The notes: generated by a model from the sequence alone, not told the origin. Numbered from the stretch's first letter, positions 19,397 to 33,650 are shown. The stretch is DNA of 49,992 nucleotides from Limisphaerales bacterium (GCA_003159675.1 PLQC01000040.1:34087-84078), one strand, 5' to 3'. Translations and numbers: made by a program.

Positions 19397-19473
<77 letters not shown>

Positions 19474-19478
19474 TTTTG

Positions 19479-19655
<177 letters not shown>

Positions 19656-29245: not shown

Positions 29246-30727
29246 TCATCCTTCTTCTCCCGGTCCGCCAATCAACGCGGCCAGACGCGGCAGCAACGAT
29301 GCTTGCGAAAAAGCTGACAACGTTTCCATCGGCAATTGCCGTTGACCAGTAACTCCACGTTGTCGCAAGTATTGAATTTGATCCACCAGAATGTCCGCTT
29401 CGCCGTGCATGACACGGATGGACGGGTATTCATCACCGAGACGATTCAGGATTTCCGTGACGTGGCTGGGACGCGGGCCAATGTAGATGACCGGCGCGCC
29501 CACGGCCAGGATGTTGTAAATCTTGCACGGATGCACCAAACCCAGCATGGCTTCGCCCATCACCACCACGTGCGCGTCCGCCGCCGACAGTGACGCGGCC
29601 AACTGGTTCAACGGTTGATAAGGCAGGCACAGGACATTCTTAAAAGCTGAAATTTGGAAAGCGGACGCGCCTGCGTCCACCTTCGGCGCGGCAGGAAGCT
29701 GAAATTCATTTTTGCTCTCTGCCCTCTGCCCTCTGCCCTCCTTGGCCTGTGAAGTTTGGTTTGTTACTTCACAGGCCGAGGCCCGTGAAATGTCTTGGCC
29801 TGTGGAATCTATTCCGTATTCCAGCAGGCCGCCTATTTCACCGGGCTGTTTTCCGCTTTTCGCTTCCCCGTTTCCCATTTCCACTTTCTGCTTTCCGCTT
29901 TCCGCTTTTTCCCTTCCCTCCGCCCAACGCTGCACACGCTTGAATTCACTGCCGCCCCCGACGAAACAAAAGGCGATGGAAGCATCAGCCTGCAATCTTT
30001 CCGCCGCCCGCATTAATGTGTCCAGCGGATGCACCGGACTGTGATTGCCCGAATACATCACCACGAATTTGTCCTGCAAATCGTGCGCCGCGCGGAATTG
30101 TTCCCGTCCAACCGCGTCAAATCGCACCACGCTGTCCTGCGACCACGGTGGAATCACGGCGATTTTTTCCGGCGCAATTCCCTTGGCCACGATCCGGTCG
30201 CGCATGAACCGGTCCAGCGCAATAATCTTGTCCGCGCGCCGCAAGCTGAACCGCGACATTCGCTCCAGCATCCTTCCCGCGAGTGATTCTGCCCGCAGCC
30301 AGCCGGCGGCCACCGCCTCATCCGGATTCAAATCCATCACCCAATAACAAAACCGCGCCCGCCAGAGTTTTGCCCGCCACGCGCCGATGAAGGAAATAAG
30401 CGGCGGCGTGGTGAGCGCAACAACGACATCCTGCCGCCGCAGGAAGGCAAGTCTGGCGCAGCACAAAAAAATGAAGCTGGCGAAATCCGCCGCGCGCCGC
30501 CATTTGGCCTGTTTGCCAAAGCGGGTGGAGAACACCCGGAAGATGTGCACGCCGCGCCACATTTCCTGGGCGGGAAATAATTTATCCGGCTCGTCATACG
30601 CGCGCCGTCCGGTGACCACGGTGACTTCGTGCCCTTTTTCTGCCAGCGCCGCTGCCAGTTCACTCAAGTGCTGCGCCGTGGAAACGACGTCGGGATAAAA
30701 CGTCTGATTAAGCAGAAGGATTTTCAA
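29246..30727 (-). CDS. GT4 glycosyltransferase (WcaI-like) with in-frame repeat insertion
   Basis: LNQTFYPD, MYSGN, PYQP and HPCKIYNIL motifs. Confidence 0.9.
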   Translation of the reverse strand: MKILLLNQTFYPDVVSTAQHLSELAAALAEKGHEVTVVTGRRAYDEPDKLFPAQEMWRGVHIFRVFSTRFGKQAKWRRAADFASFIFLCCARLAFLRRQDVVVALTTPPLISFIGAWRAKLWRARFCYWVMDLNPDEAVAAGWLRAESLAGRMLERMSRFSLRRADKIIALDRFMRDRIVAKGIAPEKIAVIPPWSQDSVVRFDAVGREQFRAAHDLQDKFVVMYSGNHSPVHPLDTLMRAAERLQADASIAFCFVGGGSEFKRVQRWAEGREKAESGKQKVEMGNGEAKSGKQPGEIGGLLEYGIDSTGQDISRASACEVTNQTSQAKEGRGQRAESKNEFQLPAAPKVDAGASAFQISAFKNVLCLPYQPLNQLAASLSAADAHVVVMGEAMLGLVHPCKIYNILAVGAPVIYIGPRPSHVTEILNRLGDEYPSIRVMHGEADILVDQIQYLRQRGVTGQRQLPMETLSAFSQASLLPRLAALIGGPGEEG

Positions 30728-30890
30728 AAGCTGAAACTAAAATCAAAAATAGAAATTAGGAAAGCAGAAATTGAGAAAGCAGCCAAATCGAAATTAGAAA
30801 TGAGGAATACAGAAAGCAGAAAGCAAGAAGCCAAAATCTGAAAGCTGAAACAGGGAAATCAATTTCTGTTTTCTGATTTCTCAATTTTTT
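30727..30890. repeat. Degenerate heptamer array (gaaagcN/gaaattN) with inverted tail
   Basis: aaagctg, aaagcag, aaattag... followed by tttctgt/tttctga/tttctca. Confidence 0.7.
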
Positions 30891-30908
30891 TACACTCCGG
30901 GTTCCATC

Positions 30909-31040
30909 CTAAAAAAACCGCTTCGGCTCCTGCCGCCAGTTGACATTGCCGTAGTGCTTGCTAAGGCAAAACAGGTCTTGTTGTAGCGCGAACGCCGCCT
31001 GATATACCTCCAGTTCATCGAATGAATTTACCTTGTGCAT
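30909..31040 (-). pseudogene. Truncated duplicate of the four-helix-bundle gene
   Basis: MHKVNSFDELEVYQAAFALQQDLFCLSK nearly matches the start of 32477-32851, then diverges and stops. Confidence 0.88.
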
Positions 31041-31170
31041 AAGTTTGGTATTTCAGTGTTCCAGTATTTCGGTAAAGCGTTTAACGGGGAAAGAAAGATC
31101 TGAAATCCGAAACACCGATCTACCGAAATACTGGTTCACCGAGACTCCGTCTCCGGTGACGCCTGCCGGT

Positions 31171-31422
31171 TCATCGCTTCAACTTTCCGTAGATGCGTGC
31201 CTTGCGTTCGGCGGTCATGGCCGTGGCGGGGCCGGCCTGCAACAGCAAGGCTTCCAGTTCATCCGCGTTGAGAAAGCTAGCGCCTTCGGGTCCTTGGCCG
31301 CGGGTGACGGCGTCCAGCATCGCCAGCGCCTGATGAATGACCTCGCTTTTGTTCGAGGCGCATCCGGCGCGAATTTGCCGCTGGATGATGGTTTCATAGT
31401 AATCGGTGCGTGTGTAACCCAT
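31171..31422 (-). CDS. ParD-like/RHH antitoxin (orphan)
   Basis: YETIIQRQIRAGCASNKSEVIHQALAML. Confidence 0.7.
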   Translation of the reverse strand: MGYTRTDYYETIIQRQIRAGCASNKSEVIHQALAMLDAVTRGQGPEGASFLNADELEALLLQAGPATAMTAERKARIYGKLKR

Positions 31423-31581
31423 GTGGTTATGGTAATCTATTGGCAAATGCTGTCGATGGAGAAGGGCAAAATAAAAGGTTGAAAGCGGACTAAAAAACCA
31501 CGGGACAATGGACATTCTTAAAAGCTGAAAGCTGAAATATGGAAAATTGAAACGCTGAAATACCGAAACACCGTGTCTCAA

Positions 31582-32055
31582 TTAGTCCCAGCCTTGTTCC
31601 TTGCGAACTCGTTTTCCGAAGTCCGCGCACCAGACTGGAAATTCCGACGCGAGCCGTTCCGCAATGCGGCTCAATTCCGCCGGGCGGTCCGCCCTCAACG
31701 TCAGGTCATACGCGCGACGCATAACGTGCCGGAAACCTTTCAATTCCCGCACGTCTGCCATCTGGTCCTTGGGAATGAACGCCGGGCGGATGCCTTCGAG
31801 ATCCAATGCCAGCCTTTGGATCAGTTTCTCGTGAAAATCGCCCCGCTTCTCGAAATGGTTTTCAAACTCTTCGCAGAGCCGTTGGAACATCCTTTCGACG
31901 ACGTTGTAAAATCGCGCCAATTCGTAGGCGCACGCCTCCAGATGACCGGGCGATTCCTCCCGCAAACGCCGCGCGGCCTTTTGTGCGGCGTCATGCGCCA
32001 CGGCGCAGTCCCTCTCCATTTCCTTGAGCAGGATGGTCAGGCCGCCAGCATCCAT
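31582..32055 (-). CDS. HEPN (HepT-like) ribonuclease toxin
   Basis: FYNVVERMF, FHEKLI, IRPAFI and GFRHVMRRAY; downstream of an MNT gene. Confidence 0.85.
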   Translation of the reverse strand: MDAGGLTILLKEMERDCAVAHDAAQKAARRLREESPGHLEACAYELARFYNVVERMFQRLCEEFENHFEKRGDFHEKLIQRLALDLEGIRPAFIPKDQMADVRELKGFRHVMRRAYDLTLRADRPAELSRIAERLASEFPVWCADFGKRVRKEQGWD

Positions 32056-32369
32056 ATCTCGCCTTCTCTTGCGATGCGTTCGCGGAACCGGCACCCGGAC
32101 AAAAGGACAATATCCACGGAACGTCCCATTTGTTCGGCGAGCAAACCGGTTAGTTGGTAAAGAGACATTCCCGACGGCTCGGTTTCCAATGCAATATCAA
32201 TGTCCGATGTGTCGGTGAAACGATAGGGCTTTGCCAATGAGCCGAAAACCACGACTTGATCCGCCGGAGCGAGTTGGCGCAAAACGCTCCTCAAGCGTTG
32301 TCGCACTTCGAGGCGCAAAGCCTCACGGCGTTCGGCGCGCTGGCGGTTCAGTTGTTGGAGCAAGGTCAT
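32037..32369 (-). CDS. Minimal nucleotidyltransferase (MntA-like antitoxin)
   Basis: VFGSLA...SDIDIA...VDIV. Confidence 0.9.
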   Translation of the reverse strand: MTLLQQLNRQRAERREALRLEVRQRLRSVLRQLAPADQVVVFGSLAKPYRFTDTSDIDIALETEPSGMSLYQLTGLLAEQMGRSVDIVLLSGCRFRERIAREGEIWMLAA

Positions 32370-32444
32370 TGTCGCACTCCGAGACTGGCATGGTTTGGCC
32401 GGAAAGACAAGCGCGACACAGCAAAGGCTGCATGAGACATGAAA

Positions 32445-32482
32445 CGGTGTTTCGGTATTTCAGTGAATCAGTGAGATCAGTA
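32445..32482. repeat. 8-mer array downstream of the four-helix-bundle gene
   Basis: cggtgttt cggtattt cagtgaat cagtgag. Confidence 0.7.
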
Positions 32483-32851
32483 ACAGAAGGATTCGTGGCG
32501 ATTGATCATGCTGCCAAGTAAGCGTCCGATTTGCTGCAATTGCGGGATTAATCGTTCGTGATCTGCTGCCGAAACATATTCACAGGCTTTCGCCGTCTTA
32601 AGCCAATGTAGCGTTTCCTGCAATTCCCCGTCGGCATCAGTTAATTTGGACAGAAAGTGTGCAGGATACCTGCGCTTGGCCCAGGACTCCGCGATATTGG
32701 CCCCAATGGACCGCGACGAACGGCGAATTTGATCCGTGAGCGAGTAATCTTCCACCTTGGGCCAGCGCTTGCTGAGGCCAAACAGGTCTTGTTGTAGCGC
32801 GAACGCCGCCTGATACACCTCCAGTTCATCGAATGAATTCACCTTATTCAT
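32477..32851 (-). CDS. Four helix bundle protein (23S rRNA IVS-protein / Avd-like family)
   Basis: FDELEVYQ, YSLTDQIRRSSRSIGANIAE, FLSKLTDADGE.QET.HWL. Confidence 0.93.
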   Translation of the reverse strand: MNKVNSFDELEVYQAAFALQQDLFGLSKRWPKVEDYSLTDQIRRSSRSIGANIAESWAKRRYPAHFLSKLTDADGELQETLHWLKTAKACEYVSAADHERLIPQLQQIGRLLGSMINRHESFCY

Positions 32852-32862
32852 AAATTAAAAAT

Positions 32863-32918
32863 CCACCGATCTACCGAAATACCGGTTTACAGATTCACCG
32901 AAACACCGCCCTCCGCCC
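32863..32918. repeat. 8-mer array upstream of the four-helix-bundle gene, inverted relative to 32445-32482
   Basis: accgatct accgaaat accggttt acagattc accgaaac accg. Confidence 0.75.
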
Positions 32919-33650
32919 TCAGAGCGGCCACACCCCATACCGCACCCAGTAACCCAGCAGTTTCACATATTCGGATTTCACGTAACTCTCCTGCGCCTTG
33001 CGTTCCGCCCTCTGCCTTGCGTTAAAAGCTGAAAGCTGAAATTCTGAAACGCTGAAATCTGCTTTCTCTGGCCCGTGAAGTCTGCCTTGGCCTGTGAAGT
33101 TTGTTTGGCCTGTGGAATCTGTTCCGTATTCCAGCAGGCTCACTTCACCGGGCAGTATTTCAGCATTTTCATTCTCGCCCACATACCCTGCATAGGACGG
33201 GCGCGAATAAACTTTCATGTCCGGCGCGTAATGCTCGAAACACATCAGCGCCCGCCGCGAATGATACCAACTCGTCACGATGATGACGCGATGCGCGCCC
33301 ATTTGCCGCAGCAAGGGAATGGAAAATTCCGCGTTCTCCCGCGTCGTGCGCGATTTGGCTTCCAGCGAAATATTCTGCGCCGGCACACCGGACTTGATCA
33401 GAACCGTTTTGTAATTTTGGGCGTCGCCATTCCCACTGACCAGGATTTCAGGCGCTTCACCCTGCTTGAACAATTCCGCCGCGCGCACCGCCCGGTCGGG
33501 TTTGCCGCCCAGCACCACCAACACGTCCGCCCTCGCCGGCCCGATGTCCACCGTCAGAACCTGTTGCGGAAATAACCAAACAACCGCCGCCAGCAGCACC
33601 AGCAACAAACTGGCCGCGAACAGGATTTTCAGGATGCGATGGCGTTTCAT
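32919..33650 (-). CDS. YdcF/DUF218 family protein with in-frame repeat insertion
   Basis: VVLGG, LVSG, E.KSRTTRENA, VTSWYHSRRA, EYVKLLGY. Confidence 0.9.
   Translation of the reverse strand: MKRHRILKILFAASLLLVLLAAVVWLFPQQVLTVDIGPARADVLVVLGGKPDRAVRAAELFKQGEAPEILVSGNGDAQNYKTVLIKSGVPAQNISLEAKSRTTRENAEFSIPLLRQMGAHRVIIVTSWYHSRRALMCFEHYAPDMKVYSRPSYAGYVGENENAEILPGEVSLLEYGTDSTGQTNFTGQGRLHGPEKADFSVSEFQLSAFNARQRAERKAQESYVKSEYVKLLGYWVRYGVWPL

Follow-up and report, generated by a model that had tools for sequence, protein, structure and literature searches.

In a polysaccharide operon of a Limisphaerales bacterium, a gene for a four-helix-bundle protein of the family PF05635 (23S_rRNA_IVP, or S23p) stands between two inverted arrays of 8-nt units, and this array-bracketed cassette is a real, non-chance feature: the same packaging is found at PF05635 genes of the genome, of the order and of other phyla. 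The operon lies in a 49,992-nt stretch of DNA (GCA_003159675.1 PLQC01000040.1:34087-84078; contig C156:34087-84078), here called the window and numbered from its first nucleotide, which belongs to an assembly of 4.11 Mb in 182 contigs with 59.7% G+C. On balance, and with modest confidence, we read the core of the locus as a free-standing cassette of the type found as intervening sequences (IVSs) in 23S rRNA genes, here outside rRNA, which has grown into a stack of small genes and whose arms would pair as a stem in RNA. The results tie together two unexplained things, the PF05635 proteins, a very large family whose members are without known function according to PMC4990558, and the heptamer repeats of prokaryotic genomes, treated in PMC4679880. 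Across phyla, a PF05635 gene is almost always enclosed, in ordinary operons, by a matched pair of inverted arrays, and among 11 sampled genomes those with many copies of the gene are rich in arrays, which are almost lacking where the gene is missing. To this the present locus adds that the occupied gap can grow into a stack sheltering toxin–antitoxin genes, that a related genome has a clean empty site, and that the mismatches between arms are without RNA-type bias, so that a mechanism at the DNA level stays in view.

Architecture of the cassette

The minus strand carries every gene between 25353 and 38923, including the five genes and gene fragments of the stack, which an earlier note, made by a model from the DNA of the window, had correctly described as co-oriented with the operon. 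The stack fills the 2.19 kb that separate a DUF218 gene (32919-33650, minus strand) from a GT4 glycosyltransferase gene (29246-30727, minus strand). In the order of transcription it comprises array a1, the PF05635 gene, array a2, an MNT/HepT-like_2 gene pair, array a3, a ParD-like gene, a hairpin of arrays a4 and a5, a 5′ fragment of a second PF05635 gene and a hairpin of arrays a7 and a6, after which the GT4 gene follows (Table 1).

The PF05635 protein scores 100.7 bits against the TIGR02436 model (cut-off, 24 bits), has relatives of solved structure in PDB entries 2RLD and 2GSC, with five chains each, and finds its closest outside matches in records from Verrucomicrobia subdivision 3 and Limisphaerales. 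Models of Avd, a protein of diversity-generating retroelements, match it below their cut-offs (bAvd PF22296, 33 against 40 bits; NF033474, 38.2 against 80 bits). The 5′ arm, a1, begins about 10 nt past the DUF218 stop codon and forms with the 3′ arm, a2, an inverted pair around the gene (32440-32473 and 32864-32897; 34 nt at 71%, shorter registers reaching 75-78%). Searched as ACYG-N4-ACYG-N4-ACYG with one mismatch allowed, the unit pattern gives 16 matches in the window, where 1.22 would be expected (maximum of 100 shuffles, 4), and 14 of the 16 fall within 31046-32908. Plus-strand matches lie at 31106-31149, 31554-31573 and 32865-32908 and minus-strand matches at 31046-31081 and 32445-32472; this strand-specific pattern bears out the claim, made in the earlier note, that inverted ACCG and CGGT/CAGT arrays bracket the four-helix-bundle gene.

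Arrays around PF05635 genes in the genome, the order and other phyla

Each of the 12 PF05635 genes of the genome is flanked, upstream and downstream, by 7/8-mer arrays no more than about 100 nt away; the unit differs from gene to gene, and at a minimum of 10 of the 12 the array pairs are inverted. In a ranking of 3077 genes by the inverted complementarity of their flanks, for which the null distribution had its 99th percentile at a score of 24 and its 99.9th at 29, five PF05635 genes took ranks 4, 12, 14, 27 and 28. Arrays on both flanks were found at only 17 of 3166 genes scored, and 5 of these 17 belong to PF05635.

The family is present in 25 of the 31 genomes of the order, and 19 of the 27 PF05635 loci in 23 other genomes of the order score at least 24. 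Some positions are held in common: in loci L013, L015 and L016 the cassette occupies one site, with a gene for a small membrane protein on one side and a solute symporter gene on the other, and the cassettes of L026 and L006 lie upstream of one and the same gene across families of the order. A broader scan took one genome per species and an alignment of 7 sequences, a 19-sequence alignment having been set aside as too diverse, so that the 80 loci fetched, 76 of them scorable, sample only the window's own sub-family (50-75% identity). These loci come from Verrucomicrobiota, Chloroflexota, Bacteroidota, Planctomycetota, Acidobacteriota, Desulfobacterota and others. A score of at least 26 was reached by 51 of the 76, against 1 of 277 shifted controls, and the arm period is 7 in 37 of the 51. 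Loci L044 and L045, from Haloferula isolates, resemble the window in having arms built of CGGT 8-mers. The earlier note had named as its counter-case arrays equally frequent around unrelated genes, with cassette boundaries in relatives that do not coincide with them; the counts run the other way, and cassette boundaries meet arrays both in relatives and in other phyla.

On plasmids, PF05635 matches are mostly from Nostocales (37 records). Six cyanobacterial plasmid loci were inspected; all have arrays on both sides, and in four these are inverted. One of the six, locus L229 on plasmid pANA02 of Anabaena sp. 90, has ACAGGTG arrays in inverted orientation, and its neighbours are cas6 on one side and cas4 on the other.

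Genes next to the cassette gene are mainly co-oriented with it (46 against 8 opposed upstream and 48 against 6 downstream, by a crude method that left 36 of 90 ambiguous on each side).

The two arms of a locus are matched to each other. Over 102 loci, the best partner of a 5′ arm is its cognate 3′ arm in 30 cases and the cognate is among the top three in 47, the median score being 30 when the two arms are cognate and 16 when they are not. Within the sub-family of the window's protein, the strongest 4-mer enrichment is that of CAGT in 5′ flanks (8.6-fold) and that of ACTG in 3′ flanks (8.1-fold). Chains of at least three such cores at 7/8-nt spacing occur as C[AG]GT in 28 of 76 5′ flanks and as AC[CT]G in 32 of 76 3′ flanks, compared with none of 141 controls, and their polarity is nearly fixed, the opposite orientation appearing in only 1 and 2 loci.

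Period-7 arrays as a genome-wide class

The STRR sequences of cyanobacteria are one example of heptanucleotide repeats. According to PMC4679880, heptanucleotides are the most abundant long simple-sequence repeats in most prokaryotes, with slippage as the proposed origin (Mrazek et al. 2007, as cited there), and direct repeats of TAACTGA occur in Beggiatoaceae, Cyanobacteria and Bacteroidetes; heptamer repeats appear in it as a recognised but unexplained class, and the PF05635 family goes unmentioned, the terms four helix, S23 and intervening being absent from its text. The present genome has the same kind of repeat far above chance. Tandem Repeats Finder (TRF), run on the whole genome with at least 4 copies required, gave 149 arrays of period 7, whereas periods 6, 8 and 9 gave 24, 19 and 11; the units are diverse across the genome. 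A strict autocorrelation detector gave 166 period-7 arrays against 2 in the shuffled genome. Like the heptanucleotide repeats described before, these arrays are short, mostly intergenic, patchy across taxa and frequently built on an ACTG/CAGT core; they differ in forming matched inverted pairs around one protein family.

Only 12 of the 166 strict arrays have a PF05635 gene within 250 nt and 154 lie elsewhere, so neither this locus nor this gene family has the arrays to itself. An inverted partner was found for 60 of the 166, within 150 nt for 44 and at 150-1600 nt for 16, and none was found for the other 106. A crude gene caller put 132 of 271 arrays inside genes, many of them at the ends of open reading frames (ORFs) as artefacts of choosing the longest frame, and we counted genic arrays only if they were checked against orthologues (GT4, DUF218) or lay mid-ORF in recognisable enzymes.

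The density of arrays tracks the number of PF05635 genes. The sample took ten contigs per genome and 20 kb from the start of each. In the six genomes with 0-2 PF05635 matches it contained 2 period-7 arrays over 1087 kb, and in the four with 9-16 matches 34 arrays over 625 kb; the window's genome had 4.0 per 100 kb. Over these 11 genomes, which are related and so not independent, the Spearman correlation is 0.72 (p 0.013).

An empty site and array inserts within genes

A genome from another family of the order (G016) has the orthologous operon in the order GT – Hexapep – GT2 – DUF218 (189 aa) – GT4 (415 aa), with 24 nt and no arrays between DUF218 and GT4, against 2.19 kb here. An empty site was what the earlier note had proposed to look for in orthologous operons.

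Comparison with orthologues also shows arrays inside the two flanking genes. The GT4 protein has 493 aa here against 415 aa in G016, and about residues 271-362 of the query, which correspond to an in-frame array insert (Table 1), are missing from the orthologues in G016, G026, G028 and G018; in a further genome, G008, a different array insert occupies the same GT4 site. The DUF218 protein has 243 aa here against 189 aa in G016 and carries its insert ahead of a C-terminal tail that matches. The two inserts have in common an 83-nt core at 81% identity (C156:63866-63946), in direct orientation and 3.3 kb apart, of which the genome has these two copies only. The GT4 insert is outside the cassette stack but of the same repeat class.

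Further in-frame heptamer arrays were seen mid-ORF at C6:28106-31006, C143:4162-6381, C172:19265-21280, C7:9357-11804 and C40:12995-19285, in ORFs that we take, by eye, to encode LeuRS (three inserts), GlyRS, MutL, HypF and an alpha-2-macroglobulin-like protein. When translated, heptamer arrays yield peptides, for example a repeated 7-residue motif.

Likeness to the intervening sequences of 23S rRNA

The earlier note regarded the arrangement as an uncharacterised system, which does not wholly hold: its anatomy is that of ORF-bearing 23S rRNA IVSs, of which the one in Coxiella has tandem heptamers in its stem. In this Coxiella IVS, located at helix 45 and described in PMC4990558, an S23p ORF is enclosed by a 28-bp stem of terminal inverted repeats, three tandem heptamers, strain-variable in number, precede the start codon, and RNase III cuts in mid-stem. 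The same paper cites ORF-bearing IVSs from Leptospira and Brucella and a homopentameric homologue from Xanthomonas, and describes the PF05635/S23p proteins as being without known function. Shared with the window's cassette are the PF05635 ORF looped out by a stem of terminal inverted repeats, the length of a few hundred nucleotides and an upstream arm with tandem units, which are heptamers in Coxiella, 8-mers here and 7-nt units in most array-bearing loci of the broad scan. The cassette differs in its place, between the DUF218 and GT4 cistrons and not in an rRNA helix, in its 8-mer arms, and in being stacked with toxin–antitoxin genes and a broken second copy. In the literature searched, which did not cover subscription journals, we found no account, rRNA apart, of repeat arrays on the flanks of PF05635 genes, and heptamers were mentioned together with an IVS in PMC4990558 only.

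In the reading we favour, the cassette is a PF05635 ORF enclosed by terminal inverted repeats made of the 8-mers CGGTnnnn and nnnnACCG. It occupies the gap between DUF218 and GT4, which has since grown to the 2.19-kb stack, and the MNT–HepT pair, the ParD-like gene and the broken second copy are set apart by arms, or remnants of arms, of one array family. When the operon is transcribed, the arms would pair as a long stem with the ORF looped out, and RNase III would cut this stem; the RNA of the cassette would thereby be parted from the cistrons on either side, and the host could tolerate it; both steps are drawn by analogy with the 23S rRNA IVS. The toxin–antitoxin genes would be passengers in an array-rich, tolerated gap, probably acquired through recombination between similar arms. 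In the predicted RNA fold of 32425-32925 (minus strand), the minimum free energy and centroid structures both close a1 on a2 as a long stem around the ORF, and the genome has an RNase III gene. The proposal that the arrays act as RNA stems, which was already in the earlier note, stands to the extent that a1 and a2 are complementary and the folds close a stem; it does not extend to each cassette of the stack, the three HepT-like_2 loci found elsewhere being free of arrays.

Several results weigh against this reading. The fold of the whole element is not significant (z -1.52, with 8 of 100 shuffles equally stable). A constrained RNA stem is expected to give more G:U pairs than A:C mismatches. 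The arms of 51 loci, over 1844 positions, have 1563 Watson–Crick pairs, 73 G:U, 77 A:C and 131 other combinations, and the arms of 15 order-level loci have 411 Watson–Crick, 14 G:U, 15 A:C and 24 other, so the mismatches give no sign of selection on the sense RNA. At the locus itself, a2 pairs better with a3, across the MNT–HepT genes (87%), than with a1 (71-78%). RNase III cutting at this cassette is inferred by analogy, and the assembly has no large-subunit rRNA match, hence no 23S rRNA gene for comparison. Finally, 8 of the 27 order-level loci and 25 of the 76 broad-scan loci score under threshold, the PF05635 genes on contigs C87 and C2 have direct arrays nearest to them and the inverted copy further out, and in 2 of the 6 cyanobacterial plasmid loci the arrays are direct or non-complementary. 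With no excess of G:U, a weak fold score, the a2/a3 pairing and the sub-threshold loci, a DNA-level mechanism stays open.

Alternative explanations

The first alternative is that the cassette is mobile as DNA, its inverted arrays folding as single-stranded hairpins or cruciforms that would be substrates for the insertion, capture and rearrangement of small genes, with the dispersed hairpins as non-autonomous copies; this corresponds to the cassette-insertion system proposed in the earlier note, and we consider it possible, if on the unlikely side. The empty site in the orthologous G016 operon fits such movement, as do the in-frame array inserts in GT4, in DUF218, in the GT4 gene of G008 and in the LeuRS, GlyRS, MutL and HypF-like ORFs. 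Movement as DNA would also suit the strand symmetry of the arm mismatches (73 G:U against 77 A:C), the frequency with which strict arrays have an inverted partner, the array density that follows PF05635 copy number and the occurrence of two stacks in two polysaccharide loci. However, no transposase was found among the 8 ORFs at the stack scanned with Pfam, the rest of the window not having been scanned for transposases, and the nearest tyrosine recombinase match (PF00589) lies at 2152-2577, about 28 kb away. The earlier note's statement that there is no transposase holds for these 8 ORFs. The second stack, on contig C174, likewise has no transposase among its Pfam-scanned ORFs. Cassettes are found at common sites across families of the order, and movement would therefore be rare; the units vary between loci, so there is no common recognition sequence; and the three other HepT-like_2 loci are array-free.

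The second alternative, which we consider unlikely, is that the arrays are binding sites of the four-helix-bundle protein, whose relatives form pentameric rings, used for self-control and perhaps for action on dispersed arrays, with arms and protein co-evolving as in REP/RAYT systems. It would account for the CAGT/ACTG enrichment, the phased chains and the fixed polarity in the flanks of the sub-family, and it agrees with the five chains of the solved relatives, with the homopentamer cited for Xanthomonas in PMC4990558 and with the array density that follows gene copy number. Yet common descent of the gene with its arms would likewise keep core and polarity, and relatives of the same order at 40-58% identity have other units (CAGA-type in L012; GTGAGTG/GTGGGNA in L013 and L015-L017), which argues that the unit is not fixed by the protein sub-family.

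That the heptamer arrays are slippage products of intergenic DNA, lying beside small genes by chance, is very improbable: heptanucleotides are indeed the commonest long simple-sequence repeat class (PMC4679880) and 154 of 166 arrays are away from PF05635 genes, but arrays flank 12 of 12 PF05635 genes of the genome and 51 of 76 broad loci against 1 of 277 controls, the arms are matched and fixed in polarity, and PF05635 accounts for 5 of the 17 double-flanked genes.

A doubtful extension of the cassette reading is that PF05635 proteins are the missing partner of bacterial heptamer repeats, including the long simple-sequence repeats, STRR-like arrays and TAACTGA repeats. The cassettes would be autonomous and the solo arms, hairpins and in-frame copies non-autonomous, as RAYT is to REP. 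This idea is based on the array density that tracks PF05635 copy number; were it true, genomes would gain and lose the repeat class together with the gene family.

Comparison with other repeat-associated systems

REP/REPIN elements and their RAYTs (REP being repetitive extragenic palindromic sequences and RAYT REP-associated tyrosine transposases) are alike in that a repeat flanks a small gene in inverted orientation and is scattered through the genome as hairpins as well; they differ in that the arms here are tandem arrays with a unit that varies per locus. Unlike the RAYT transposases, the four-helix-bundle protein has, to our knowledge, no known catalytic activity. The present genome has candidates for this class too: the top ranks in flank complementarity went to two RAYT-like genes of about 150 aa (C176:5448-5918 and C42:13003-13455) with inverted repeats of about 100 nt, which look like REP-associated tyrosine transposases, judging from their sequences.

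The window's protein is of a fold family related to Avd, as the weak Avd model matches indicate, but there is no nearby reverse transcriptase, and the sole RVT_1 match of the genome (C104:18215-18610) is on a contig without a PF05635 gene. Chromosomal integron arrays often include toxin–antitoxin cassettes. The stack resembles them in its co-oriented small genes with structured repeats between them and, in a simple scan, without promoters of their own; it differs in having no adjacent integrase and in its repeats, which are tandem 7/8-mer arrays flanking a gene on either side, where an integron cassette has a single attC-type site.

The toxin–antitoxin genes and further arrays of the stack

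TRF and a repeat finder, which report periods of 7, 8, 15 and 23 together with the inverted pairs, confirm that the MNT–HEPN pair, the ParD-like gene and the truncated PF05635 copy are separated by 7/8-mer arrays, as described before. The earlier note had gone on to tie the arrays to each cassette; they belong instead to the four-helix-bundle, IVS-type element and to the genome-wide heptamer class. As in type VII MNT–HepT pairs, the nucleotidyltransferase gene lies directly upstream of the HEPN gene and overlaps it. The MNT protein scores 39 bits against the NCBIfam MntA equivalog, under the 60-bit cut-off. Arrays a3 and a2 form an inverted pair across both genes (31548-31577 and 32441-32470; 30 nt at 87%).

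The 84-aa product of 31171-31425 has no Pfam match at E 0.01, and its ParD matches are below cut-off (TIGR02606, E 1.6e-4 and 21.6 against 46.2 bits; PF03693, 16.2 against 21 bits). At E 1e-3, none of the MNT, HepT and ParD-like proteins has a paralogue in the genome, the ParD-like gene matching itself only.

The truncated second copy of the PF05635 gene is genuine, and a tblastn search aligns 33 aa of it at 82%. Array a4 is a copy of a1 that belongs to this truncated gene (31113-31149 and 32864-32900, 84%). Together with a5 it forms a hairpin without cargo (31053-31079 and 31116-31142; 27 nt at 81%, with a 36-nt loop), in which the ACYG pattern occurs on both strands. The hairpin next to GT4, also without cargo (30745-30774 and 30859-30888, 73%), ends at the GT4 start codon, and TRF reports repeats at 30751-30782, 30810-30850 and 30862-30881.

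Table 1. Features of the stack and of its flanking genes (positions in the window)
Feature	Position	Strand	Basis and remarks
Four-helix-bundle gene, 124 aa	32477..32851	-	23S_rRNA_IVP PF05635, E 7.7e-30
5′ arm a1	32861..32908	-	ACCGnnnn on plus strand, CGGTnnnn on sense strand, 8-nt spacing
3′ arm a2	32440..32481	-	Overlaps PF05635 stop codon; TRF period 8 at 32460-32481
MNT-type nucleotidyltransferase (antitoxin of MNT–HepT pair)	32037..32369	-	Pfam Polbeta, NTP_transf_2
HepT-like HEPN ribonuclease toxin	31582..32055	-	PF20797 HepT-like_2, E 9e-23; overlaps MNT gene
Array a3	31520..31577	-	GCTGAAA / CCGAAAYA units, a1 sense; TRF periods 7, 23
Orphan ribbon-helix-helix gene, weakly ParD-like, 84 aa, without toxin partner	31171..31425	-	
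Array hairpin	31044..31149	-	a5 (31044-31081) and a4 (31095-31149)
5′ fragment (43 codons) of second PF05635 copy	30909..31040	-	93 nt 91% identical to 32764-32856
Array hairpin, GAAA-phased 7/8/15-mers then their complement	30727..30890	-	a7 30727-30858, a6 30859-30888
In-frame array insert in GT4 gene, about 92 codons	29641..29917	-	TRF period 7 at 29713-29740, 29850-29908
In-frame array insert near DUF218 3′ end, about 55 codons	32990..33175	-	

Toxin–antitoxin genes as cassettes with arrays of their own were also considered. At the three other HepT-like_2 loci in the 31 genomes, no 7/8-mer array was found within 1.5 kb at the threshold used, and this count (0 of 3) rules against the idea; a general cassette system is therefore only partly supported.

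A second minus-strand stack was noticed at C174:2000-13000 (locus L223), in a Wzm/Wzt polysaccharide-export operon. It has three PF05635 genes with HepT/MNT, PIN/MazE and an Unstab_antitox gene, with 8-mer arrays of GCTGAAA type between them, and stacks of PF05635 and toxin–antitoxin genes therefore recur.

Expression and occurrence of the locus

A scan of 30500-33200 for promoters and terminators gave one candidate of each kind, and neither count exceeded its mean in shuffles. The DNA of the window is present in peat metagenomes (14 peat DNA runs), and parts of it were found in six metatranscriptome runs, of which four were aligned (X15-X18). Short metatranscriptome contigs cover the HepT/MNT genes (in three studies), the ParD-like gene, GT4 and DUF218, and the PF05635 gene is covered in X15 only. 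No contig of runs X15-X18 spans 32385-32554, and the contigs show neither strand nor RNA ends and may include carried-over DNA. In one contig, from run X17, 16 nt are missing at 31487, close to the edge of a3 but beyond it, and positions 31509 and 31575 are changed; this is a strain variant next to the array.

Two repeats of other kinds were noticed. At 19444-19653 of the window, a 60-nt unit stands in 3.5 copies that are 97% identical; its consensus resembles, by eye, a tRNA gene's 3′ end, and the repeat may mark repeated integration sites. Elsewhere in the genome, C111:2700-23500 holds a cluster of 9-mer arrays with ACGGATTAC-like units, which form many inverted pairs, the shortest loop measuring 20 nt and the longest 2.9 kb.

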